Assembly (NCBI GenBank): GCA_963770895.1
Contig: CAVYRF010000001.1
Location: 1,696,001 to 1,760,000, forward strand
Source of the DNA: an uncultured Acidobacteriota bacterium
Lineage (GTDB): Bacteria > Acidobacteriota > Thermoanaerobaculia > Multivoradales > UBA5704
Length of the DNA stretch: 64,000 bases
Direction: 5' to 3'
The notes under the pieces are model-generated. The model was not told the origin of the DNA. It searched no databases and saw only the letters and a list, made by a program, of their open reading frames with translations. Positions 5,568-58,060 of the stretch are shown here, piece after piece. Each line of letters starts with the position of its first letter. Position 1 is the first letter of the stretch. Position numbers and translations under genes: made by a program.

Positions 5568-6872
5568 CTAGGCGCTGCCGGGGTCGGCCATCGCCGCCGG
5601 CATCCCGGCGGACGGTGGTGGCGGCGCCGGCGGGACGGCGCGCGCCAGGCGGGTGGCGTCCAGCAGGTCGAGGAGATAGGTGGCGGGCACCAGCAGCATG
5701 GCGCTGACCGCCAGACCCGCCAGCACGCCGCTCGGCAGGTCGAGGTCGTTGTCGATCCGCGCCAGGCCGATGAGCAGCACCAGCGCGGCGTCCAGCAGGG
5801 CGGCGGGCCATCGCCATGCGGGCCGGTTGCGCGACAGCAGCAGCGCCGTGGCGCCGTAGCCGGTGGCGGCGACCAGTGCGTTGCCGCTCAGCAAACCGGA
5901 GAACAGGCCGATGGCGCCGGTCCACCAAGCCATCGAGCGGTTGAGATCGACGCTCAGCAGCAGGCTCGCGCAGTAGGTCGCGATCAGCACCAGGGCTTCG
6001 CCGCGCCGCCGCCGCCACAGGCACCAGGCGGTGACGCCCAGGACCACGGCCAGCAGGATTGGCGCCGAGCCCAGGACGGCGAACAGCTGCAGCCCGCTGT
6101 GGATGGCGGGGGAGAGCCAGCTGTCCATCCAGCCGGTGACCTGGCCGTCGAAATGGGTATAGCGCCGCGACACCACCCGGCCGGCCAGGCGGGCCAGGCT
6201 GCCGAGCACGGTCAGCTCGACGATCAGTACCCACAGCTGGCGCTGGCTGAAGCGTCCGGGCAGCGACTCGCGGAACCACAGCAGGACGCGGTCGCGATGG
6301 CGCCCGGCGATGCGCAGCAGGATGAGGCTCGCGGCCAGGACCAGCACCGACAGGCCGACGCGGCCGATGAAGTGCTCGGCCCGCCCCCAGCTTTCGCCGA
6401 AGGCATAGCCCAGCAGGCCGATGCTGGTTGCCCACAGCAGGCAGGCGGTGGCGTTGAAGGCGGCGAAGCGCGGCCAGCGCAGACCGCTGATGCCGGCAAA
6501 CAGCGGCGCGAACGCCCGCACCCCCGACAGGAAGCGGGCGACCAGGATGGTCTTGGTGCCGTGGCGGGCGAAGAATCCTTCGACCGCCAGCAGCCGCGGC
6601 GCGGTCAGCCCGACCCAGCGGCCGTGCCGCTCGACAAACCCGCGGCCGCCTCGCCGGCCGATCCAGTAGCCGGTGTTGTCGCCCGCGACGGCGGCCAGGA
6701 ACGCCGTGACCAGCAGCCAACCCAGCGACAGCGATCCCTGGCGGGCGAAGAAACCGCCGGCCAGCAGGACCGTCTCGCCGGGCAGCGGCAGGCCGCAGCC
6801 TTCGAAGTAGATCCCGATCACCACCACGGCATAGCCGTAGCTTGCGAACGCCGCCGCCAGCCAGTGCCCCAT
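5568..6872 (-). CDS. DedA/VTT-domain membrane protein fused to a degenerate PAP2-like domain
   Basis: EGCGLPLPGETVLLAGG, GDNTGYWIGR, ARFLSGVR DedA motifs; C-terminal TM region with SGN and RIDNDLDLPSG at the PAP2 motif positions. Confidence 0.85.
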   Translation of the reverse strand: MGHWLAAAFASYGYAVVVIGIYFEGCGLPLPGETVLLAGGFFARQGSLSLGWLLVTAFLAAVAGDNTGYWIGRRGGRGFVERHGRWVGLTAPRLLAVEGFFARHGTKTILVARFLSGVRAFAPLFAGISGLRWPRFAAFNATACLLWATSIGLLGYAFGESWGRAEHFIGRVGLSVLVLAASLILLRIAGRHRDRVLLWFRESLPGRFSQRQLWVLIVELTVLGSLARLAGRVVSRRYTHFDGQVTGWMDSWLSPAIHSGLQLFAVLGSAPILLAVVLGVTAWCLWRRRRGEALVLIATYCASLLLSVDLNRSMAWWTGAIGLFSGLLSGNALVAATGYGATALLLSRNRPAWRWPAALLDAALVLLIGLARIDNDLDLPSGVLAGLAVSAMLLVPATYLLDLLDATRLARAVPPAPPPPSAGMPAAMADPGSA

Positions 6873-46652: not shown

Positions 46653-47741
46653 TCAGCCGAGGTACTCGGGGTGCTGGGCGGTGGTGTCGAAGTGCTGCGA
46701 GATCTTGTACAGCTCGTACTTGCCGTCCTGGGCGGCGGCGGCGGTTCTGGCCAGGAGCGCTTTGGACTGGTCGGCGGTGAGCGGCTGGAAGGTGCGGGCG
46801 GCGTCCAGGGCTTGGTGGAGGATGGGGAGGGAGTCGCAGCCGGTGATGACGACGCTCACCGGCAGGCTCATGGCGTAGTGCAGGCACTCGACGGGAGTGA
46901 CGACCTTGCTGTCGAGGATGAAGTGGCTGCCCATCGGCTTCATCGCCAGGACGCCCATGCCGCGGCCCAGGGCGGCCGGCAGCACGCGCTGGCCGAAGCT
47001 GTTGAAGTGGGCGTCCATGACGTTGAGCGGCATCTGCACGGTGTCGAACACGAAGCCGTGGGCGGCGGCCACCTCCAGCATGTGGAGGTGGATGTCGGGG
47101 CTCTTGTGGCCGGTGAAGCCGATGTAGCGGATCTTGCCCGCCTGGCGCGCCTGGAGCGCGGCTTCCATGCCGCCGCCCGGCGCGAAGATGCGGTCGGCGT
47201 CGGTCATGCGGATATTTTCGTGGAACTGCCACAGGTCGACGCGATCCGTCTGCAGGCGGCGCAGCGAATCGTCCAGCTGCTTGGCGGCGGACAGCCGGGT
47301 GCGGCCGTCCACCTTGGTCATCAGGAACACCTTCTGGCGATAGCCGTCGCGCAGCGCCTTGCCCATCCGCTCTTCGCTCTTGCCGCCGTTGTAATCCCAG
47401 CAGTTGTCCAGGAAGGTGACGCCGTTGTCGATCGCGGTGCGGACGATGCGAATGCTCTCCTGTTCGTCCTTCTGGGTGCCGATGTGCGAGCCGCCGATGC
47501 CGATCAGCGACACCTTCTCACCGGTGCGTCCGAGCGTCCGGTAGGGCATGGCGCCGCTCGCCGGGGCGGGGGCCGCGCCCGCCCAGCGCGCGCCGCCGGC
47601 GGCGACCGCGGTGGCAAGCGACAGCTCCAGGAAGCTCCGCCGGCTGACGGCGCCGTGCTCTGATCCCTGCGATGCCTGCGATCGCAGCGATTCCGCGGTT
47701 GCCGCGGTCCGCGGCGAGGGCTCTTTCCCGCTGTCGTGCAT
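46653..47741 (-). CDS. Aldo/keto reductase with Tat signal
   Basis: SRRSFL; MPYRTLGRTG, DNCWDY, LMTK, GKIRYIGFTGH. Confidence 0.92.
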   Translation of the reverse strand: MHDSGKEPSPRTAATAESLRSQASQGSEHGAVSRRSFLELSLATAVAAGGARWAGAAPAPASGAMPYRTLGRTGEKVSLIGIGGSHIGTQKDEQESIRIVRTAIDNGVTFLDNCWDYNGGKSEERMGKALRDGYRQKVFLMTKVDGRTRLSAAKQLDDSLRRLQTDRVDLWQFHENIRMTDADRIFAPGGGMEAALQARQAGKIRYIGFTGHKSPDIHLHMLEVAAAHGFVFDTVQMPLNVMDAHFNSFGQRVLPAALGRGMGVLAMKPMGSHFILDSKVVTPVECLHYAMSLPVSVVITGCDSLPILHQALDAARTFQPLTADQSKALLARTAAAAQDGKYELYKISQHFDTTAQHPEYLG

Positions 47742-47835
47742 CGGCCTGCCTCCTTCCATCGTCCGCCGCAGGCATCCGCAAAAACCATGCCGGTGCGGCA
47801 CCGCTCGGCCGCCGGCGGTGCCGCGCCGGCGCGGG

Positions 47836-48355
47836 TCACCGGCAGCTCAGGGAGGCGAACAGGTCGTGCCACTGCGCCGCGATGCGATCCCAGCGATAGC
47901 GCAGGGCGGTGGCGGTACGAAAGGCGCTGCGGCCACGCTCGGCGCGGTAGCACGGGTCGTCGTACAGGCGGGCGAGGCTCGCGGCGAGCGCGTCGGCGCT
48001 GACGTCCTGGCCTTCGCACAGGGCGCAGGGAGCGCGGCACGTGGCGACCGGCTCCAGGAAGACGCCGGCGTCCTGCCACAGCTCGGCGCAGGCGCTGTGC
48101 CGCGGCACGATCTGCGGCGCCCCCGCCGCCGCGGCATGCTCGAACGCCACCAGCCCCCAGCCTTCGCCGGAGGAGGTGTTGACCCCCACGTCGCAGGCGT
48201 TGTAGAGCCGGTTGAGCTCGCCGGGCGTCAGCTCGCGATGGCGATTTGGCGTCCACCTGGTTGAGCAGATCGCGCTCCGCGTCGCCGCCGCCCTTGACGC
48301 GGATGGCGACGGTCTTGCTGGCGCGATAGCTTTTCCATTCCTGCTCGCTCGACAT
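47836..48355 (-). pseudogene. Chimeric remnant: 5' end of an unknown gene joined out of frame to the 3' part of a GT4 glycosyltransferase
   Basis: ATG 48355 with RBS encodes MSSEQEWKSYRASKTVAIRVK...; from ~48250 another frame gives LNRLYNACDVGVNTSSGEGWGLVAFEHAA and RYRWDRIA, with no GT N-terminal domain. Confidence 0.65.
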
Positions 48356-48385
48356 CTCCGCCTCGATCGGTGGTGCTCAGCCATG

Positions 48386-48415
48386 CTCTGCCGCGTCGGC
48401 GCGATTCATCTCACC
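48386..48415 (-). promoter_or_regulatory. Putative ECF sigma promoter, copy C
   Basis: Minus strand GGTGAGATGAATCGCGCCGACGCGGCAG, ending ~30 bp before ATG 48355. Confidence 0.7.
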
Positions 48416-48459
48416 TGGCTTGCCGCCTCGCATCCAGGATGGAAAGATTGGCCGCGAAT

Positions 48460-51400
48460 ATGGGAAGATCGCTGCACTTGGCCCACATATTCCCTCTGGT
48501 TCTGGGTTTGGTTTTGGCGCCGGCGCCGCCGCTGCTGCCAGGGCAGACGCTCACCGCGACCCTCGCTCCCGGCGCGACGTTCGCGGCCGTGCTCACCAAG
48601 GGCGCCGACGGTGCGCCGGCGGGCGGCGCCGCGCTCCTGGTCGCCGCCGACCAGCTGGGCGTCGACGTCGTGCTCGACGTGGTGGCTCCGGGCGGCGCGC
48701 ATCTCGGGCCGGTGGACAGCCCGACCGATCGCGAAGGCGCCGAATCGCTGCTCATCCCCGCCGCCGCCGCGCCCGGCGTCTATCGCGTCGAGGTGCGGGC
48801 GGCGGCCGGCGCCCTGCCGCCGGGCAGGGTCGAGCTGCGCGCCGAAGCGCTGCCGGCGGCCAGCGCCAGCGACCGCCGGCGCCTGGCGGCGGAGGGCGCG
48901 ATGAGCGAAGCCGGCCGCCTGTTCGCGGCCGGCGGCGCGGTGGCGCGGCGCGCCGCGGCGGCGCGGCTGGCGACGGCGCTCGACCTGTGGCGCGCGGCGG
49001 GGGAGCGCGGCCAGCAGGCGCGCACCCTCTACTGGCTGGCGCAGATCCAAGGCGCCCTGGGCGAGTCGCGCCAGGCGCTCGATCTCTACGGCTAGGCGCT
49101 GCCGCTGTGGCAGGCGGCCGGCGATGCCGGGCGCGAAGCCGACACCCTGACCGGCATGGGGCTGGCCAGCTGGCGGCTGGGCGACAACCCGTCGGCGCTG
49201 GCGGCGTTCCAGCGGGCGATGGCGCTCGAGCGGCAGCTGGGCGACCGCCACCGTGAGGCGGTGACGCGCAACAACCTCTGCCTGGTCGAGCACGCGCGCG
49301 GCGAGCTGCGCCAGGCGCTCACCTGTTACCAGGACGCCCTGGCGTCGCTCGCCGGCCAGGGCGAGGAGCGGCAGCAAGCCGTGCTGCTGCTCAATGCCGG
49401 CGCGGCGTCGGAAAGCCTGGGCGAGCCGCGCCTGGCGATCGCGCGCTTCCAGCAGGCGCTCGTCCTGCTGCGCGCCGCCGGCGACCGCAAGCAGCAGGCG
49501 CAGGCGCTCAACAACCTCGCGGTGGTGTGGAGCGAGCTGGGCGACAAGGACCGGGCGCTGACCACCTATGGGCAGGCGCTCGACCTCTTCCGCCAGGCCG
49601 GCGACCGCCTGGGCGAGGCGCGGGCGCTGCACAATCTCGGCGTCACCTACTTTGCGCTCGGCGAACCGCGGCGCGCGGAGGCGCACTACGAGCAGGCGCT
49701 GGCGCTGCGGCGCGAGCTGGGCGACCGCCGCGGCGAAGCCAGCACGCTGGAAAAGCTGGCCGCCGCCTACGGCGCGGAGGGCGACGCCGCCAAGGCGCTG
49801 GCCGCGGCCAGCCAGGCGCTGGCCCTGGCGCGCGCCGCCACCGATGGCGCCGACCGCGGCGCCCTGGCCGACGCGCTCGCCCTGCTGGGCAGGGAGCAGG
49901 CGGCCGGCGGCGACCTGGCCGCGGCGACGGCCAGCCTCGGCGACGCCGCCGCGGCGCGGCGGGCGACCGGCGATCGTGGCGGGACCGCCCAAGCCTTGGA
50001 GCAGCTGGGGGAGGTGCAGGCGCAGGCGGCGGCCGCCGCCGCGGGCCTGGCGCCGGCGGCCGCCGCGGTCGCAGAGGCGCTGGCCATCCGCCGCGAGATC
50101 GCCGATCCCGGCGCCCAGGTCGAGTCGCTCGACGCCCTGGCGCGGATCGAGCGGCGGCGCGGCCGCGCGGCGGCGGCGCGCGCCGACGCCGAGGAGGCGA
50201 TGCGCCTGGTGGAGTCGCTGCGCACGGCCATTGCCGGCCCGGCGCTGCGCGCCTCCTTCCTGGGCGCCCGCCACAGCGCCTACGAAACCGAGATCGACCT
50301 GCTGATGGATCTCGACGCCGCCGATCCCGGCCAGGGCCACGCCCGTCAGGCGTTCGAGGTCAGCGAGAGGGCGCGGGCGCGCGCCCTGCTCGACCTGCTC
50401 GGGGAGGCCCGCGCCGGCGCCCCCGCCGGCGGCCTGCCGCCCGACGCGGCGGAATTCGCGCGCCGCCGCCAGGCGCTCGACGAGCGCCTGCGGGCCAAGC
50501 AGCGCCGCCGCCTGGAGGCGAGCGCCGGGACCGGCGCCGCCGCCCCCGGCCAGGACCCGCCGCCAGCGGCCGAGCGGGCGGCAGCCGAGCGGCGGGCGGT
50601 GGCAGCGCAGGTCGCCGGGCGCGAGGTCGCAGCGGTGCTGCGCGAGCTCGACCAGCTGGACATCGAAATGCGTGCCGAGCGGCCGCGCTACCTGCAGCTG
50701 GCCGACCCGCGGCCGCTCACCGCGGCGCAGATCCAGGCGCTGCTCGATCCCGCGACGCTGCTGCTGGAGTTCGCGTTGGGGGAGGAGCACAGCTTCCTGT
50801 GGGTGGTGGGCAGCGACCGCCTCGACAGCTACCAGCTGCCCGGCCGCGCGGCGGTCGAAGAGCAGGCGCGCCGGGTGTACGGCCAGCTCGCCGCGCCCAG
50901 CCTGGACGCGCACGAGGCGGGCGCGGCGCGGCGCGACGCGGCGGCGCTCTCCCGGCTGCTGCTCGGCCCGGCCGCCGGCCGCCTGGGGGATCGCCGGCTG
51001 GTGGTGGTGGCCGACGGCGCGCTGGTCTACCTGCCTTTCGCGGCGCTGCCGCAGCCCGGCGACCCCGACCAGCCGCTGCTGGCGCGCCACCAGTTGGTGT
51101 CGCTGCCGGCGGCGTCGCTGCTGCCGCTGCTGCGGCAGGGCGCCGCCGCGCTGCCGCCGGCCGCTGCCGGCGCGGCGCCGCCGGCGATGACAGCGCCGGC
51201 GGCGGGGGTGGCGCGGACCCTGGTGGTGCTGGCCGACCCGGTGTTCTCCGCCGACGACCCGCGGGTGGCGGCCGGCGGTGGCGCCGTTGCGCGGGGCGCC
51301 GCGGGCGCCGCACCCGTCCTCGATCGCCTGCCGGCGACGCGGCGCGAAGCCGAGACGATCGCCGCCTTGTTGCCGGCGGACCAGGAGCGCCTGGCCCTGG

Positions 51401-51897
51401 ATTTCGCTGCCAGCCGCGACCTGGTGCTGGCCGGGGGCCTGGCGCCCTATCGCTACGTGCACTTTGCGACGCACGGGCGGATCGACGCCCAGGACCCGGC
51501 GCTCTCCGGCCTGGAGCTTGCCGGCGTCGCTCCCGACGGCACGCCGCGCGACGGCTTTCTGAGCGTCGGCGACATCTACGGCCTGCGCCTGGCCGCCGAC
51601 CTGGTGGTGCTGTCGGGCTGCGAGACCGCCCTGGGCAAGGCCATCCGCGGCGAGGGGCTGGTCGGCCTGGTGCAGGGATTCCTGGTCGCCGGCGCCGACC
51701 GGGTGGTGGCCAGCCTGTGGCGGGTGCCGGACCGCGCCACCGCCCAGCTGATGGGGAGCTTCTATCGCGCGCTGCTGGTCGACCGGCTGCCGCCCGCGGC
51801 GGCGTTGCGGCAGGCGCAGCTGGCGCTGGCCGGGGAGCGGCGCTGGCGAGCGCCGTACTATTGGGCGTCGTTCGTGCTGCTGGGCGACTGGCGGTGA
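48460..51897 (+). pseudogene. Secreted TPR-CHAT (caspase-like) protease interrupted by an in-frame TAG at 49093-49095
   Basis: Signal peptide, small beta domain, many TPRs, CHAT dyad VHFATHG and LVVLSGCET, APYYWASF; the two track ORFs share one frame across a single stop. Confidence 0.85.
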
Positions 51898-52493
51898 TCG
51901 ACGCCGACGTCCACGCGGTCGTCGACCAGGCGGCGATCGAGCTGGCGCGGCGCATCGGCAGCGGCGACGCCGCGGCGGAAGGCGAGCTGGTCGAGCGCTA
52001 TAGCAAGGGCGTGCTCTTCCTGCTGCGCCGCATGACGCGCGATCGGGCGCTGGCCGACGATCTGCATCAGGAAACCTTTCGCGTCGTGCTCGAACGCCTG
52101 CGCGGCGCCAGCCTGGAAGAGCCCGGCAAGCTCCCGGCCTTCGTCTTGCGCACGGCGCGCAATCTCTTCCTGGCCGGCTACCGCAAGCGCGTGCGGCGCG
52201 GCGAGCACCACGACCTGGCGCCGCCCGAAAGCGTGCCCGATCCGGCGCCCGGCCAGCTGGAGGAGGTGCTGCGCGCCGAGCGGCGGGCGCAGGTGCGGCA
52301 GGTGATCGAAGAGCTGCCCACCGAACGCGACCGCCTCATCCTGCTGCGCTACTACGCCGCCGACCAGGACAAGGAGCGGATCTGCGCCGATCTCAACCTG
52401 TCGGCGCAGCACTTTCATCGCGTACTGTTCCGCGCGCGGCAACGTCTGCGGGAGCTGCTGGTGCGGTCGCCGCGCGATCGGGGGGTGAGATGA
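51894..52493 (+). CDS. ECF sigma-70 factor
   Basis: GTGA overlap with the CHAT gene; GDAAAEGELVERY, ADDLHQETF, TARN, LILLRYY, RVLFRARQRLR. Confidence 0.92.
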   Translation: MIDADVHAVVDQAAIELARRIGSGDAAAEGELVERYSKGVLFLLRRMTRDRALADDLHQETFRVVLERLRGASLEEPGKLPAFVLRTARNLFLAGYRKRVRRGEHHDLAPPESVPDPAPGQLEEVLRAERRAQVRQVIEELPTERDRLILLRYYAADQDKERICADLNLSAQHFHRVLFRARQRLRELLVRSPRDRGVR

Positions 52494-52513
52494 ACCGCAC
52501 GCTGGCGGCAGCT
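52484..52513 (+). promoter_or_regulatory. Putative ECF sigma promoter, copy A
   Basis: GGTGAGATGAACCGCACGCTGGCGGCAGCT over the sigma stop codon, upstream of the anti-sigma. Confidence 0.7.
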
Positions 52514-52542
52514 CTAAAGCGGTGGGAGCGTTGGTGACAGTG

Positions 52543-53484
52543 ATGGAACACCGAAAGATCGAAGACGAAGACTGGATCGCGCGCTATGCCGCCGGTACCC
52601 TGCCGGACGAGCAGGCGGAGCTCTTCGCCCAGCACCTGCTGCTATGCGGCGAATGCCGCGAGCAGCTGGAGCTTGAGGAGACGCTGCGCGACGGGGTGCG
52701 CGCCTGGAGCGTCGAGCAGGCGGCGCGCCAGCAGGTGGTGGTGCGCGCAAGCCTCGCCGCCTGGCTGGCCCGGCACGGCCGGTCGCGCACGCTGGCGATC
52801 GCCTGGACGCTGCTGCTGGTGGTCGCCTTGACTCCCGGCGGATGGCTGCTGCGTCAGGCGGTGGAGCAGCGCGGCCAGCTGGCGCGCGAGCGTGCCGCCG
52901 CCACCGCCGCGGCCGCGGCCGCGGGAGCGGTCGCCCCCGCCGCCGCCACCGCCGCCGCCGCGGCGCGCCGCATCGAGCAGCTGCAGGCCCAGCTGGCGGC
53001 GCAGCAGCTGGCCGCCGACCGCGCCGGCGCCGCCGAGCGCCGTGAGCGCGAGGGCCGCCAGGCCCTGGCGCGCCAGCTGGACCTGGAGCGCCAGCCGCGC
53101 GTCGACACGCCGATCGCCGTCCTGAGCGCGCTGCGCTCGGCGGCGGCGGGTGGGGGAGCGGCGCCGCCGGTGCGCATCGCCCTTCCCGTTGCCGCCGCCG
53201 CGCCGGCCCCGGCCGGTGCCGCGCCGCCCACCGCCTGGATCGCGCTGGCGCTGGAGCTGGACGGCCCGCGTCTTGCCTCGTACGCGGTGACCCTGGCCAC
53301 GGCGCGGGGCAAGACCGTCTGGCGCTGCCAGGGGCTGCACCTGGACGCGGCGGACCAGCTCACCTTGAGCCTGCCCGCATCGCTCCTGGCGCCGGGCGAC
53401 TACGAGCTGCGGGTCCAAAGCCTGGCGGCGGGCGCGCCGCCGGTCCCCGTCGCCCGCTTTGCGTTCCGCGCCGTGGCCAGGTGA
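52543..53484 (+). CDS. Membrane-spanning zinc-binding anti-sigma factor (zf-HC2)
   Basis: HLLLCGEC (HxxxCxxC), one TM helix, coiled coil, C-terminal beta domain with PGDYELRV. Confidence 0.88.
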   Translation: MEHRKIEDEDWIARYAAGTLPDEQAELFAQHLLLCGECREQLELEETLRDGVRAWSVEQAARQQVVVRASLAAWLARHGRSRTLAIAWTLLLVVALTPGGWLLRQAVEQRGQLARERAAATAAAAAAGAVAPAAATAAAAARRIEQLQAQLAAQQLAADRAGAAERREREGRQALARQLDLERQPRVDTPIAVLSALRSAAAGGGAAPPVRIALPVAAAAPAPAGAAPPTAWIALALELDGPRLASYAVTLATARGKTVWRCQGLHLDAADQLTLSLPASLLAPGDYELRVQSLAAGAPPVPVARFAFRAVAR

Positions 53485-53509
53485 GATCATCCGCGCTCTC
53501 GCGGCAGCT
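53480..53509 (+). promoter_or_regulatory. Putative ECF sigma promoter, copy B
   Basis: GGTGAGATCATCCGCGCTCTCGCGGCAGCT, 25/30 identical to copy A. Confidence 0.7.
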
Positions 53510-53570
53510 ACTTGCTGACCACCCAAGCACCGCCGGCCGGCTGCCGGCTCGACCCTCGAAAGGAGCGCCC

Positions 53571-53912
53571 ATGGATCGCCAGTCTTCGCTTCCCGCTTCC
53601 TGGAGCATCACCGAGTCGGACAACCCCACGATCTACCCGGTCGGCGCCCAGGTGGCGATGACCCCCGCGGACGACGGGCTCTACCAGCTGGGCTGGGGCG
53701 GATACCTGCTCGCCAACCTGGTGCATTTCGGCGGTGAAACCTTTCATTCGCTGCACGGCCACCCGGCCTTCGACGGCGCGCAGACTCCCTATCAGGTCGA
53801 AGTCCGGTTCGCCGCCGACGCCGGCCACATCCACGTCACCGTGCGCGCCGGCAACAGCGGCAGCGATCCGGGAGACCTGTCCGGCACCTGGGGCGCCGAC
53901 GCCAAGAACTGA
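53571..53912 (+). CDS. Small hypothetical protein (113 aa), putative ECF target
   Basis: AAGGAG RBS, host-like codon usage, ends GDLSGTWGADAKN. Confidence 0.8.
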   Translation: MDRQSSLPASWSITESDNPTIYPVGAQVAMTPADDGLYQLGWGGYLLANLVHFGGETFHSLHGHPAFDGAQTPYQVEVRFAADAGHIHVTVRAGNSGSDPGDLSGTWGADAKN

Positions 53913-53920
53913 TGAGGCCA

Positions 53921-53952
53921 GCCGGGGCGGGGCGCCGCCGCCCCGCCCCGGC
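53921..53952 (+). terminator. 14-bp GC stem-loop closing the ECF cassette
   Basis: GCCGGGGCGGGGCG-CCGC-CGCCCCGCCCCGGC; no U tract. Confidence 0.5.
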
Positions 53953-53980
53953 CATAGCCCACCGTGCTAGCATTTGCGGG

Positions 53981-54442
53981 ATGGGTGAGGAAGACGAATT
54001 CAAGGCGCGCATCGGCCGCCTGTTCGATCGCCACGGCGAGGGTAAGCAGGTTGCCGCCAACGTGTCCAAGGCCATGCGCGAACGGGGCGAGCGGTCCCTG
54101 ATGCACTTCCGCGACAAGCTCCACCAGGTCATCCTGCCGATCCTGCGCCAGGCGCATGAAAGCAGCGCGGAAGCGCAAAAGCTCCTGACCGTCAAGCACG
54201 ACGACGGCTCGGCCGCGCGTCCGGCCATGGCGCTGATCGGCACCCAGGACAGCTGGCTCGAGTTTCGCGCCGATATCAACCTGGGCAGGGTGGACATCTA
54301 TCGCGAGATCAACCGCCCCTCGTTTGCCTCGGTCAAGCCGGCCGCCCTGGCCTTCCTGCCGATCGCCAAGATCGAAAAGCCGGTCGTGCAGGAATACGTG
54401 GAGCGCTTCATCCTCCTGCTGTTCAAAGCCAAGAAGCTGTAA
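53981..54442 (+). CDS. Hypothetical protein
   Basis: Balanced amino-acid composition, GC3-rich codons. Confidence 0.7.
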   Translation: MGEEDEFKARIGRLFDRHGEGKQVAANVSKAMRERGERSLMHFRDKLHQVILPILRQAHESSAEAQKLLTVKHDDGSAARPAMALIGTQDSWLEFRADINLGRVDIYREINRPSFASVKPAALAFLPIAKIEKPVVQEYVERFILLLFKAKKL

Positions 54443-54703
54443 CAGAGCGCAAGCTCAGGCGCCGCGAGCCGCGCTGCGGCGGCGGCTCGTCCGGATGCCG
54501 AACCATCCTCCGCGGAGCGCAGTGCGCATTGCACACTGCGCAGGTGGCGCCCCGGGGCTCCGGCTTGCTCAGGTCGTGCTTGACAGCTGCACGGCTTCAA
54601 GAGATACACTTAAGCATCATTCGCGCAGCTTGAAAGCCATTGCACCCGCCGGTCGCGAGCCCATCTGGTGCCGATCGGTTGCCAGGCGGTGAGGAGTCAT
54701 CGA

Positions 54704-55948
54704 ATGTCTCCGATGCAGCTTTCCCATCCGGCTCGCAGGCGCTACGAACCGATCCGGGACCTGGCGGCGTTGCAGTTGCACCTGCAATGGGCGACGTCGC
54801 TCGAACTGTCGACCATCGCGCCGTATCTGTGCGCGCTCTACTCGGTGCAGGACCAGACCAGCGCCGCCGCGACGCTGGTGCGCGGCGTCGCCATCGAGGA
54901 GATGCTGCACATGATGCTGGCCAGCAACCTGATGAACTCGGTCGGCGCCAGCCCGAAGCTGTCGGGGGAGTTCGTCGCCAAGTACCCGACCTTCCTGCCG
55001 CACCACGCGGCCGGCGGCCCGTACGTGCAGCTGCAGGCGCTGTCGCCGGCGCTCGCGTCGACGACGTTCATGCCCATCGAGCAGCCCGAGGCGTCGCCGC
55101 AGGCGCCGCCACAGGGCGACTACTTTCAAACCATCGGCCAGTTCTACAAGGCGATCGAGCTGGGTTTCCGCCACCTGGCGGCGGAGCACGGCGAAAAATG
55201 GCTGTTCGGGCACGACACCGGGTGCCAGCACGGCGATACCTACTTCGGCGGCGGCGGCGGTCACCTGGTGGTGGTCGAAGACCTCCAGTCGGCACTGCTG
55301 GCGCTCCAGGAGATCACCGAGCAGGGCGAGGGCGCCGCCTGGCCCCACCCGCCGCTGCCCGGCGAAGACCCCTTCGGCAGCTACGAGCAGTACGGCATCC
55401 GCCTTGACGGCACCTACGGCCCCATCCTGGGAACGCCCTGGGAGATGTCGCACTACTACAAGTTCAAGCAGCTGGCCGACGGCACGGTGGCCGCTCCCGC
55501 GGTCTATCCGATGCAGGCAAACCCGGACAGCGATTCGCTCAGCGGTGCCGTTCGCAAGCTTTCGGAGCTGTGCGACGCCAGCTACGGCCTGCTGCTGCGC
55601 GCCCTCGAAAAGGCGCTCGGCACGCGGCGCGAGCAGGCCGACTTCTTTGGCATCGCCTTCCCGGTGATGCAGTTCGTGCTGCCGCGGCTCTCGGCTCTGC
55701 TGATGCAGACCGCCCTGCTGCCCGAGGCCGACCCCACGCTGGGTCCGAACGCCGGCCCCAGCTTCATGCCGCGCAACGTGCCGGCCGCGGAGGTCGCTCG
55801 CCAGGCCGAAGAGCTGCTCGCCGCGCCGCCGGCCGACCGCGGCGACAGCTACGCGACGTTGTGGGTTACGACCCTGGGCGCGGTGACCCCCGTCCTGCGC
55901 CACGCGGCAGCGCTGGCCCGCGGCCACGCCGCGCTGGACGCTCCCTAG
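54704..55948 (+). CDS. Ferritin-like protein (VioB/StaD C-terminal-type)
   Basis: LELSTIAPYLCALYS, IEEMLHM..ASNL, FMPIEQP, TIGQFY, ITEQGEG, SHYYKF. Confidence 0.88.
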   Translation: MSPMQLSHPARRRYEPIRDLAALQLHLQWATSLELSTIAPYLCALYSVQDQTSAAATLVRGVAIEEMLHMMLASNLMNSVGASPKLSGEFVAKYPTFLPHHAAGGPYVQLQALSPALASTTFMPIEQPEASPQAPPQGDYFQTIGQFYKAIELGFRHLAAEHGEKWLFGHDTGCQHGDTYFGGGGGHLVVVEDLQSALLALQEITEQGEGAAWPHPPLPGEDPFGSYEQYGIRLDGTYGPILGTPWEMSHYYKFKQLADGTVAAPAVYPMQANPDSDSLSGAVRKLSELCDASYGLLLRALEKALGTRREQADFFGIAFPVMQFVLPRLSALLMQTALLPEADPTLGPNAGPSFMPRNVPAAEVARQAEELLAAPPADRGDSYATLWVTTLGAVTPVLRHAAALARGHAALDAP

Positions 55949-55999
55949 GCCCGCGGACCCGACACCAGGCCCGCGGCGATCGCACTTCGAGGGGACAGC

Positions 56000-58060
56000 A
56001 TGGACCCGCAACCGCACTTCAAGATCCATCCGGCCATCGGCGTCGCCCGCCTGGGCGACAGCGAGGAGTACTACCTGGCGCCCGAAACCGCGGGCGGCCT
56101 GCCGCTGCTGCCGGATGGGCGGCCGTTTGAGGCCGGCGACTTCCGCGATTCCCATCACGGCCTGCGCCGCCAGGGGGCCCGCTTCACGATCTATCGTTAC
56201 GACGGTCCCGACGACGCCGGCGTCGAGGTGAAGGCGGGCGACCACGGCGTCGCCCGCATCGAATGGCAGGTGCATCTCGCCAACAAAAAGGCCATCTGGT
56301 ACCAGTTCGAAGTGCTGCTCGGCGAATTCGGCTATTCCCCCGACCATCCGCTGCGCAACGCCCAGGTGACCGAACCGGCGAAACGCCGGGCGATGATCAT
56401 CGATCCGGGCCCGCGCCGGCTGACCGGTCCCGGCCAGGCGGTGGAGTTTTCGCGCGCCGACAACCCGCACCACTACCCGATGACCTGGCCGCCCAAGGAC
56501 CTGCAGCCGTTCACCATCGATTCGCTGGGCGGCCTGCGCACCGACGCCCAGGGGCGCCTGGTGGTGCTCGGCGGCTACGGCCGTTCGGGATCGTCGATCC
56601 ATCCGCCGCAGATCCAGCAGTACGCCAACAATCCCGGCTGGTGGGACGACACCGCCGACGGGCCGGTGACCGCGGAGATCGTGTTCGAAGACGGCCGCCG
56701 CCAGCCGGTGGAGGTGCCGTCCTGGGTGTTCGTGGCGCCGCCGCGCTACGCGCCGCAGCTGCTCAACCTGGTGACGCTGTACGACACGGTGTTCGACACC
56801 TTTGTGCGCAACGCCGGCCTGCGGCCGGAGGTCTTCGCCGAGGGTCAATGGCAGCGCGACTACCACCCGGACTGGAACGGCGAGATCCTGCCGATCCTGG
56901 AACGCATCCGCCGCTACCACTGGGTGGTGGCAATCCCGCCGCAGGCGCACGACCTGGACCTGCCCAAGCTGGGCGACCGCGCCGCCGAATACAACGCCCT
57001 GCGCCAGTTCTATCTCAGCGTCATCCGGCCGCCGGCAAGGCCCAACTCGCTCACCGGCGCCGCCAACGGGCTGACCCAGATGCCCTACCTGGCGGGCGAC
57101 AACTGCCTGCAACCGGATGCGCTCAACTCCAACTACCTGACGGTCACCAACACGCAATATTTCTTTTTGCAGCAGTGGGCGCTCGGCAGGTTCCGCCACG
57201 GCACCGCGGCGGCGCCCGTCGCGCCGACCCCGCCGGGCATGGCGCTCGACCGCGCGGCGCTCGAAAACTGCGTTGGCGGCGCCTTCTCGCCCGGCATCGA
57301 AATGACCTGGATCAGCCGCGACCTGCGCATCTACGCGCAGCCGTTCCGCATCAAACACAAGCCGCACGTGGTGCCGCCGCTCAGCCTGGGCGAAGACTTC
57401 GCGCAGGGCCTGGAGCCGGGCGACGTCGGCAAATACATGGCCCAGCCCTGGCAAGCCGATTTCAACGAATGTTCGTCGCAGCCGATCGGCGATCGCGTGT
57501 TCTGGTGGTGGCCGGTGCAGCGGCCGCTGTTCGTGCACGTCGAAACGGAAGGCATGCTCAGGCAGGTCCCCTGGCTGGGCACCGACGCCGACCAGAACGC
57601 CGACGACTACCTGCAATTCGGCATGGACATCCAGATGGTGTCGGGTTGGAAAGACCTCGGTTTCGTGATCGATCAGGGCACGCCGGGTCACCCCCGCTTC
57701 GTCGAGGTCCAACGCAACCTGCCGCGGCCTCCCGCGCCTGCCGCCTCCCACGCCGCCACGCAGGCCGGCCACGGCGGCCAGGCCAGCCGCGGCGGCGGGC
57801 ACCAGACCCACCACGTGGCGGAGGCCGGCGCTGCCGGCGCTCCCGGCGGCGGCGGCGTCCACGGCGCCGGCGTCCATGGTGCTGCAGAGCATGGCGAAGC
57901 GAGCCCCGGCGGCGGCTCTCACGGCGGCGTCCCTGACGGTGGCGGCGTGCGCGGTGGCGGCGTCGCCGGCGGTGGCGGTGTGCACGGCGGCGGCAGCGGC
58001 GTGCACGGCAGCGGCAGGGGTGGCGGGGGAGCCCGTGGCGGCGGCGACGGCCAGGTTTGA
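56000..58060 (+). CDS. LodA/GoxA-family CTQ-dependent oxidase with Gly/His-rich tail
   Basis: KIHPAIGVARLGDS, WQVHLANKKA, WWDDTADGPV, CVGGAFSPGIE, PWQADFNEC, WWPVQRP. Confidence 0.93.
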   Translation: MDPQPHFKIHPAIGVARLGDSEEYYLAPETAGGLPLLPDGRPFEAGDFRDSHHGLRRQGARFTIYRYDGPDDAGVEVKAGDHGVARIEWQVHLANKKAIWYQFEVLLGEFGYSPDHPLRNAQVTEPAKRRAMIIDPGPRRLTGPGQAVEFSRADNPHHYPMTWPPKDLQPFTIDSLGGLRTDAQGRLVVLGGYGRSGSSIHPPQIQQYANNPGWWDDTADGPVTAEIVFEDGRRQPVEVPSWVFVAPPRYAPQLLNLVTLYDTVFDTFVRNAGLRPEVFAEGQWQRDYHPDWNGEILPILERIRRYHWVVAIPPQAHDLDLPKLGDRAAEYNALRQFYLSVIRPPARPNSLTGAANGLTQMPYLAGDNCLQPDALNSNYLTVTNTQYFFLQQWALGRFRHGTAAAPVAPTPPGMALDRAALENCVGGAFSPGIEMTWISRDLRIYAQPFRIKHKPHVVPPLSLGEDFAQGLEPGDVGKYMAQPWQADFNECSSQPIGDRVFWWWPVQRPLFVHVETEGMLRQVPWLGTDADQNADDYLQFGMDIQMVSGWKDLGFVIDQGTPGHPRFVEVQRNLPRPPAPAASHAATQAGHGGQASRGGGHQTHHVAEAGAAGAPGGGGVHGAGVHGAAEHGEASPGGGSHGGVPDGGGVRGGGVAGGGGVHGGGSGVHGSGRGGGGARGGGDGQV

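Follow-up and report, generated by a model that had tools for sequence, protein, structure and literature searches.

The window analysed here, a 64,000-nucleotide stretch from an uncultured Acidobacteriota bacterium (assembly GCA_963770895.1, contig CAVYRF010000001.1, positions 1,696,001 to 1,760,000), contains a cassette of genes for a TPR-CHAT protease, a sigma factor of the extracytoplasmic function (ECF) type and a zinc-finger anti-sigma factor. Three copies of a bipartite motif, GGTGAGAT-N13-GCGGCAG, lie in and beside this cassette. An earlier reading of the same DNA (the original prediction) took them for promoters recognized by the sigma factor of the cassette and described them as 30-nt elements, with copy C at 48386-48415; the pattern used here spans 28 bases. 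Motif scores below were obtained with a position weight matrix (PWM).

48439-51897, plus strand: TPR-CHAT protease gene, 1152 codons (Pfam CHAT, 7.4e-63, plus TPR families)
51894-52493, plus strand: ECF sigma factor gene, 199 codons (Sigma70_r2, 2e-09; TIGR02937 match)
52543-53484, plus strand: anti-sigma factor gene (zf-HC2, 24.3 bits against a cutoff of 22.2; alternative starts GTG 52522 and GTG 52534)
53571-53912, plus strand: gene of a 113-amino-acid protein (P0005), downstream of copy B
53922-53951, plus strand: GC-rich hairpin with a 13-bp stem, a 4-nt loop and no T run, directly 3' of the 113-amino-acid gene
47836-48355, minus strand: family-4 glycosyltransferase remnant, C-terminal half only, in two frames (ATG 48355, then the frame of P0004)
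48388-48415, minus strand: motif copy C, exact match, PWM score 26.1, divergent from the CHAT gene and aimed at ATG 48355
52484-52511, plus strand: motif copy A, exact match, PWM score 31.8, 31 nt from the 28-mer to the anti-sigma ATG 52543
53480-53507, plus strand: motif copy B, exact match, PWM score 31.5, 63 nt from the 28-mer to ATG 53571 of the 113-amino-acid gene

The three copies were exact matches at all predicted places, with both invariant blocks at one spacing. Copy A contains the stop codon of sigma (TGA 52491-52493), and copy B that of the anti-sigma gene (TGA 53482-53484). Measured from the end of the 30-nt copies, the start codons follow after 29 nt (A, ATG 52543), 61 nt (B, ATG 53571) and 30 nt (C, ATG 48355, minus strand), and each copy is oriented toward its downstream gene. 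Copies A and B are identical at 25/30 bases. The identity, stop-codon overlaps, distances of 29-61 nt and orientation that had been described all held on the sequence.

A chance origin of the motif was rejected, since the three exact copies compared with 0 in 100 dinucleotide-preserving shuffles of the window and a reversed-pattern control gave 0 matches genome-wide. With up to three mismatches allowed, the window contained 7 sites against 4.65 expected, and the 4 non-exact sites all had 3 mismatches, which is the chance level. A scan of the genome (8,164,432 bases in 3 contigs, 71% G+C) found only the three exact copies of the window; two one-mismatch sites were both located on contig 2. The family PWM detected five sites of at least 20 bits genome-wide, against 0 with the reversed PWM, and all five were at two of the four sigma cassettes of the genome. 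Sites of 16-19 bits were mostly within frames with a high G+C content at third codon positions, or had no Shine-Dalgarno (SD) sequence with a start codon, and were not counted.

Recurrence and layout of the motif in related loci

In a first survey, 60 relatives were searched with the pattern, and sigma orthologues were called at E 1e-25 or better. Many matches had the form GGTGAGATAGCC...GCG(G/A)CAG. Those read in context were intergenic, with an SD sequence and ATG 40-70 nt further on, and in two cases the match came immediately after a CHAT stop codon. Sigma orthologues were present in 36/61 genomes, and many shared a contig with a motif match less than 1 kb away. In one relative (G025), five identical one-mismatch matches (GGTGAGACGATCTCGGCTACAGCGGCAG; C2:6558, C6:690028, C6:696105, C10:215246 and C20:373182) are probably part of a repeated element and not promoters.

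A second survey, with a profile of 21 sigma orthologues, covered 80 loci (856 kb, L070-L149) from species-representative genomes, out of 372 relatives in all. The loci came from metagenome-assembled genomes (MAGs) named Thermoanaerobaculia (most), Holophagales and Acidobacteriota, with a few Blastocatellia and Bryobacteraceae, and the pattern was found across many related uncultured soil and sediment bacteria. One MAG labelled Gammaproteobacteria (L124) also carried the cassette and the motif, which transfer or a binning error could explain. At up to two mismatches, 70 matches were obtained (57 on the sigma strand) against 2 with the reversed control, with at least one match in 50/80 loci. A relaxed pattern gave 140 matches against 9 in the control; 2 of the 140 were sites counted twice where two of the regions taken from the window's own genome overlap.

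The 70 matches recurred at particular gene borders. Nine were at the end of the sigma gene and 11 at the end of the anti-sigma gene. Sixteen came just after the CHAT stop codon, and 16 were upstream of sigma at no more than 1.2 kb; 10 matches belong to both of the latter classes. Loci of the first survey had copies at corresponding places. The remaining 28 included a recurring divergent copy upstream of CHAT, seen in orthologous loci such as L083, L089, L090, L103, L104 and L106. Because matches recurred at the sigma end, at the anti-sigma end and divergently from CHAT, all three positions in the window have counterparts elsewhere. Some relatives also had good copies far from any cassette, and the regulon is therefore not always local.

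The logo of the 70 sites read gGTGAGATa-N12-GCG(G/A)CAG. Its spacing was rigid: TGAGAY-N17-RCA(G/C) had 130 matches at N17, compared with 2-11 at every other spacing from N13 to N21. An SD sequence, a start codon and an open reading frame followed 12-130 nt downstream of 52/69 sites (median 55.5 nt), compared with 685/2917 random positions in these loci (23.5%). A G was found 10 nt past the motif in 54/70 sites and in all three window copies. From these features we infer a -35 element, (G)GTGAGAT, and a -10 element within GCG(G/A)CAG, held at the fixed spacing TGAGAY-N17-CA(G/C). The conserved G found 10 nt past the motif would probably be the start of transcription, which predicts starts near G 48378 (copy C, minus strand), G 52521 (copy A) and G 53517 (copy B). 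Counted from this G, TGAGAT would be at -35 to -30 and CA at -12/-11, which is the layout of an ECF promoter. A rigidly spaced bipartite element near the sigma locus, as in ECF promoters, was thus present both by the spacing count (130 matches at N17) and by the comparison with the control (70 against 2).

On this basis we consider it probable (roughly 0.8) that the ECF sigma factor encoded at 51894-52493 recognizes the three copies as its promoters. The proposal that ECF-type promoters are read by the adjacent sigma factor was supported by the link between motif and sigma orthologues, the homologous positions, the rigid spacing, the distance to the start codon in the predicted 5' untranslated region and co-variation of the motif with the sigma clade. 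The motif statistics, the positional conservation and the co-variation were observed here; recognition by the window's own sigma factor is what they would predict.

Sigma clades, feedback and competing explanations

The last base of the -10 block was scored with the relaxed pattern in 84 loci, of which 42 had only CAG, 27 only CAC and 5 a mixture, and 10 had no match. A maximum-likelihood tree of the 84 sigma factors had as its deepest split (SH-aLRT, an approximate likelihood-ratio test, 94 on either side) a clade of 32 sequences with 25 CAC and 0 CAG loci and a clade of 52 sequences with 42 CAG and 1 CAC. Two changes sufficed to place the variant on the tree over the 68 pure sequences counted, and 0/500 shuffles were as clustered. 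The CAC variant preferred G just before CAC, at -1 (80%), and T two bases past it, at +2 (91%). Both clades had an identical -35 block and identical spacing, the differences being a few bases around the -10 end. In six loci of the CAC clade (L094, L099, L100, L109, L112 and L113, at about 5902-5914), a third kind of copy, ccTGAGATtttcc...GCGGCACtt, was located some 90 nt ahead of sigma; these loci also have the copy that follows the CHAT stop codon.

Both sigma types occurred together in 13/67 assemblies, and each cassette kept its own variant in 11/13 of these, including the window's genome, with CAG in the window and CAC at the paralogous cassette P1. The loci of this same-genome comparison fell into the two clades of the sigma tree. 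The -10 variant follows the cassette and not the genome. The copies at P1, both CAC-type and found with the family PWM at 20 bits or more, were as follows.

C1:863595-863625, minus strand: motif copy of cassette P1
C1:867062-867092, plus strand: motif copy of cassette P1

One of them was 0.5 kb upstream of the P1 sigma gene, and the other was divergent from the P1 CHAT gene. At the two further paralogous cassettes of this genome, P2 and P3, no copy was found with the family PWM or the relaxed pattern. P1 and P2 are sigma/anti-sigma cassettes less than 8 kb apart (C1:861656-869733), and only P1 had detectable copies. The original prediction had raised the possibility of a motif private to each cassette. 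This was not the case, since the -35 block and the spacing are common to the whole sigma family and P1 has two CAC copies. What the check on the paralogous cassettes did reveal was a clade-specific -10 end, CAC at P1 and CAG in the window; it revealed no private motif, and none at all at P2 or P3.

The position of the copies relative to sigma differed among sub-clades when the table of motif matches was read against the sigma tree. A copy within 30 nt after the end of sigma was present in 11/13 members of the window's clade and in 4/5 members of the neighbouring clade; only 1/18 loci of these two clades had a copy on the sigma strand in the 1.2 kb upstream of sigma. The other CAG clade had an upstream-of-sigma copy in 20/23 loci, usually directly after the CHAT stop codon and before the small gene that precedes sigma. 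On the plus strand of the window, no copy was found upstream of CHAT (best PWM score -4.6) or sigma (-11.9), compared with 26-32 for the three copies, and no common promoter emerged when the 300 nt preceding sigma were aligned for 12 loci from the window's clades. It had been noted that no copy points at the CHAT and sigma genes; this was borne out by the PWM and proved to be conserved in the sub-clade. The proposed negative feedback, in which the sigma factor drives its anti-sigma factor, gained support from the conserved position of copy A after sigma. With no copy preceding CHAT-sigma, negative feedback without positive autoregulation would be a conserved trait of the window's sub-clade.

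Several observations weigh against reading the copies as promoters of this sigma factor. The co-variation of CAG/CAC with the sigma clade rests on essentially one deep split, which is close to a single evolutionary event and therefore not statistical proof of co-evolution. The residue marker used for same-genome pairs had been picked from the motif states; only the tree and the pairs within one genome do not depend on those states. Residues diagnostic of the sigma clades were not concentrated in sigma-2: 12 fall within residues 40-103 and 8 within 124-188. No copy was found in 10/84 cassettes even with the relaxed pattern, P2 and P3 among them, and the strict pattern (up to one mismatch) also occurred in relatives that lack a sigma orthologue, such as G002, G004 and G017. 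Many matches listed across relatives read GGTGAGATC... and may be coding background. The circuit may be partly inactive in the window's genome, or affected by assembly errors, given the decayed gene downstream of copy C and the TAG in the reading frame of CHAT. Finally, the bases AAc (-35) and cGT (-10), common to many ECF promoters according to PMC6061681, are missing from the motif. The canonical AAC/CGT pair was not found in the logos, which show TGAGAT with GCG(G/A)CAG or gGCACtT. The pair is not a strict requirement of the family; the group ECF54 (PMC7826278) deviates too.

Among other explanations, the most serious is that the promoter is read by any sigma factor of the family, with full cross-talk among paralogues, in which case the copies would say little about the regulon of the window's own sigma factor. 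The common -35 block and spacing, the small number of differences at the -10 end and the 8/138 sites with the 'wrong' variant fit this explanation. We nevertheless regard it as unlikely, though with appreciable weight, as cassettes kept their own variant in 11 of the 13 two-type assemblies and the CAC variant has its own flanking preferences for T at +2 and G at -1. A much smaller chance is given to the motif being the operator of another DNA-binding regulator, either a repressor or an activator. A conserved cis element beside regulated genes would fit an operator as well, and so would the missing AAC/CGT bases. The element is, however, asymmetric, points strictly toward the gene that follows it and has two blocks at a single constant distance, of the size seen in promoters. 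The cassette has no further conserved regulator gene, and within single genomes the variant tracks the neighbouring sigma paralogue, all of which makes an operator improbable.

Two further explanations address the positions of the copies at gene ends. An element acting in the RNA, whether for processing, to mark the 3' end or as part of a leader, could account for the overlap of copies A and B with stop codons and for the many copies in relatives that begin a few bases from the CHAT or anti-sigma stop codon. RNAalifold on 70 instances found no conserved structure (energy 0; mean z of single folds -0.24), Rfam had no family at the motif, and divergent copies such as C are upstream of genes with no same-strand gene before them; we consider an RNA element very improbable. 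Copies C and B are also mutually inverted and bracket CHAT, sigma and anti-sigma, and next to C lies a truncated glycosyltransferase gene, as might be expected of terminal inverted repeats of a mobile cassette inserted in that gene. This is the least probable of the explanations: the cassette contains no transposase or recombinase, copy A is internal and direct, copies in relatives are direct at gene junctions, number 1-4 and include no bracketing pair, and distal copies occur without any cassette. A sigma-54 promoter was also rejected. Sigma-54 promoters have GG and GC doublets 10 nt apart (TGGCAC-N5-TTGC). Some divergent copies of the CAC type read GGCAC...TTGCA, but in these, by count, 12 nt separate GG from GC, and the three window copies have no TTGC downstream.

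Genes of the cassette and predicted targets

The sigma gene starts at GTG 51894, overlapping the CHAT stop codon (GTGA). Its product matched the NCBIfam model TIGR02937 (sigma70-ECF) with 76 bits (cutoff 42.9), which places it among the ECF (group 4) sigma factors, and Pfam Sigma70_r2 with 37.6 bits (cutoff 24); Sigma70_r4_2 reached 17.6 bits, under its cutoff of 25.7. None of the NCBIfam subfamily models reached its cutoff, and solved ECF structures were only distant relatives (E 1e-8). By its translation, the anti-sigma factor has a zf-HC2 domain at the N-terminus, then a single hydrophobic helix, a linker rich in Ala and, at the C-terminus, an extracytoplasmic domain. An adjacent cognate anti-sigma gene, as is typical of ECF loci, was thus found directly downstream of sigma in the window, and beside sigma in most of the 80 loci.

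The CHAT protein has an N-terminal hydrophobic signal-like segment, and the His and Cys of the caspase-like dyad are present in the translation. The gene contains an in-frame TAG at codon 219 (49093-49095). Alignments to L073, L071 and others pass through the TAG, with 50% identity over residues 14-1151 and R at this position in L073. Contigs of another data set at this locus were short fragments that did not extend over the TAG. The gene could be a pseudogene, translation could restart at ATG 49156 with loss of the signal-like N-terminus, or the TAG could be an assembly error.

In the mechanism we propose, the zinc-finger anti-sigma factor would hold the sigma factor at the membrane until the exported TPR-CHAT protease makes a signal-dependent cut, a role that is probable by analogy with DdvA of Myxococcus xanthus. 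The freed sigma factor would then transcribe three units: unit A from the internal promoter, encoding its own anti-sigma factor; unit B, encoding the 113-amino-acid beta protein; and the divergent unit C, which in the window's genome would comprise only the glycosyltransferase remnant.

The genes downstream of motif copies were of three kinds, encoding the anti-sigma factor, small proteins that match nothing in Pfam or, in some cases, secreted proteins. The original prediction had named two flanking effector units, of which the one from copy B to the 113-amino-acid gene stood, while the unit of copy C turned out to be a truncated, frameshifted glycosyltransferase remnant. P0005 grouped with the proteins encoded after the post-CHAT motif in L074, L075 and L097, where the gene order is different, and relative G032 has a P0005 homologue on the same contig as sigma. 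P0005-like genes still follow a motif copy despite the altered gene order, and the pair of promoter and gene was therefore kept through rearrangement. In L074 (7943-8842), the P0005-like protein is a tandem domain duplication of 300 amino acids, with the motifs W.IT..S and L.G.WGAEA occurring twice.

The P0005 family is small and divergent. Among 5.8 billion proteins, P0005 had no homologue but itself in a search limited to near lengths. An AlphaFold2 model predicted an eight-stranded beta protein (predicted local distance difference test, pLDDT, 74; predicted template modelling score, pTM, 0.70). The best Foldseek matches of the model (E 7e-3) were retinoic-acid-binding and lipocalin chains, with TM-scores of about 0.46-0.5; these calycin-like matches are weak and are taken as a lead only. 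The P0005 family (A2) and the other small-protein family, encoded between CHAT and sigma (A3), showed no relation when their profiles were compared (probability 0.1), and A3 had no significant match in Pfam.

The hairpin at 53922-53951 is likely the end of the copy-B unit. Its region (53903-53973) had sub-threshold hairpin matches in Rfam, and a consensus scan of 47800-54600 found no sigma-70-like promoter and no terminator, the hairpin at 53922 not being called. On the other side of the cassette, Pfam models GT4-conflict, Glyco_trans_1_4 and Glycos_transf_1 matched the glycosyltransferase remnant only at profile positions such as 273-383/385, and a 472-nt contig of another data set spans 47881-48352 of the remnant without gaps. 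An aldo/keto reductase gene (46653-47801) directly follows the remnant. Further downstream of the cassette, at 54668-58060 on the plus strand, genes for a ferritin-like protein (PF12902) and then a homologue of the LodA-type L-lysine epsilon-oxidase (LodA_N, LodA_C) were found, with no motif copy ahead of the pair.

Comparison with known systems

The closest characterized system is DdvS/DdvA of M. xanthus (PMC6061681 and PMC11506125). Like the cassette, it consists of an ECF sigma factor, a zinc-finger transmembrane anti-sigma factor and a linked periplasmic TPR-CHAT module, and several sigma-dependent promoters, found by sequence pattern, are clustered in the locus. In the model for DdvA, CHAT-mediated cleavage is followed by RseP and then by release of the sigma factor (PMC6061681, PMC11506125). 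In DdvA, TPR-CHAT is fused to the anti-sigma factor, whereas in the window and the orthologous loci the two are encoded by separate genes with sigma between them, and the window's CHAT protein has its own signal-like N-terminus. DdvS promoters read GTAA-N16-CGT, in contrast to TGAGAY-N17-CA(G/C) here. With CHAT and anti-sigma on different polypeptides and with promoters of another sequence, the cassette is not of the DdvA type. DdvS also autoregulates ddvS-ddvA, while in the window no copy precedes sigma, and its targets are CBASS and CRISPR-Cas genes, while those of the window are small proteins without an assigned role. A TPR-CHAT system with a CRISPR component likewise has a TPR-CHAT protease upstream of an ECF sigma response. 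The window differs from it in having no CRISPR component, a protease that looks exported and an anti-sigma factor of the classical membrane-bound zf-HC2 kind.

The actinobacterial group ECF54 (Casas-Pastor et al. 2021, PMC7826278, supplement) shares with the cassette a CHAT/TPR context and a non-canonical predicted promoter. It is described there as 100% actinobacterial, without an anti-sigma factor, with subtilase and carboxypeptidase-regulatory-like neighbours and with the motif GTATCAG / CTCC. The relatives of the window's sigma factor belong to Thermoanaerobaculia/Acidobacteriota, have an anti-sigma factor and another motif, and thus fall outside ECF54 as so described. In the part of the PMC7826278 supplement used here, CHAT is mentioned only under ECF54; further parts could contain the present group. 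The sigma factor of the cassette is filed as a putative new ECF group with its own non-canonical promoter.

A broader proposal joins these points and is offered tentatively, its parts being somewhat doubtful in combination. An undescribed ECF group would be widespread in Thermoanaerobaculia (Acidobacteriota), in which the TPR-CHAT protease is exported as a protein of its own and acts on an anti-sigma factor encoded apart from it, as a split form of DdvA. Its promoter, TGAGAT-N17-CA(G/C), would be without both hallmark triplets, and coexisting paralogous cassettes would be insulated from one another chiefly through the final base or bases of the -10 element (CAG versus CACtT). The window's sub-clade would have shifted the promoter from before sigma to between sigma and anti-sigma, and would thereby have moved from positive autoregulation to pure negative feedback.

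Protease-gated (TPR-CHAT) ECF signalling has so far been characterized only in the fused DdvA, which is reported to be narrowly distributed (PMC6061681, PMC11506125); the split TPR-CHAT/ECF form is common in another phylum, with the 372 relatives in species-representative genomes. With the motif, a small and testable regulon can be read from sequence for a sigma factor whose class is uncultured and has no genetics. The two sigma clades and their promoters are a natural pair of close sets, apparently discriminating by one or two -10 bases, and could be useful for studies of ECF -10 recognition and as orthogonal parts. Canonical autoregulated ECF operons, with AAc / cGT promoters as described in PMC6061681, resemble the cassette in the two-domain sigma factor, the adjacent anti-sigma factor and the rigid bipartite promoter by the locus. 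In contrast to them, the window's sub-clade has no hallmark bases, and its predicted promoter is between sigma and anti-sigma. A sub-clade with a putative sigma-dependent promoter only before the anti-sigma gene would be a natural example of rewired feedback.

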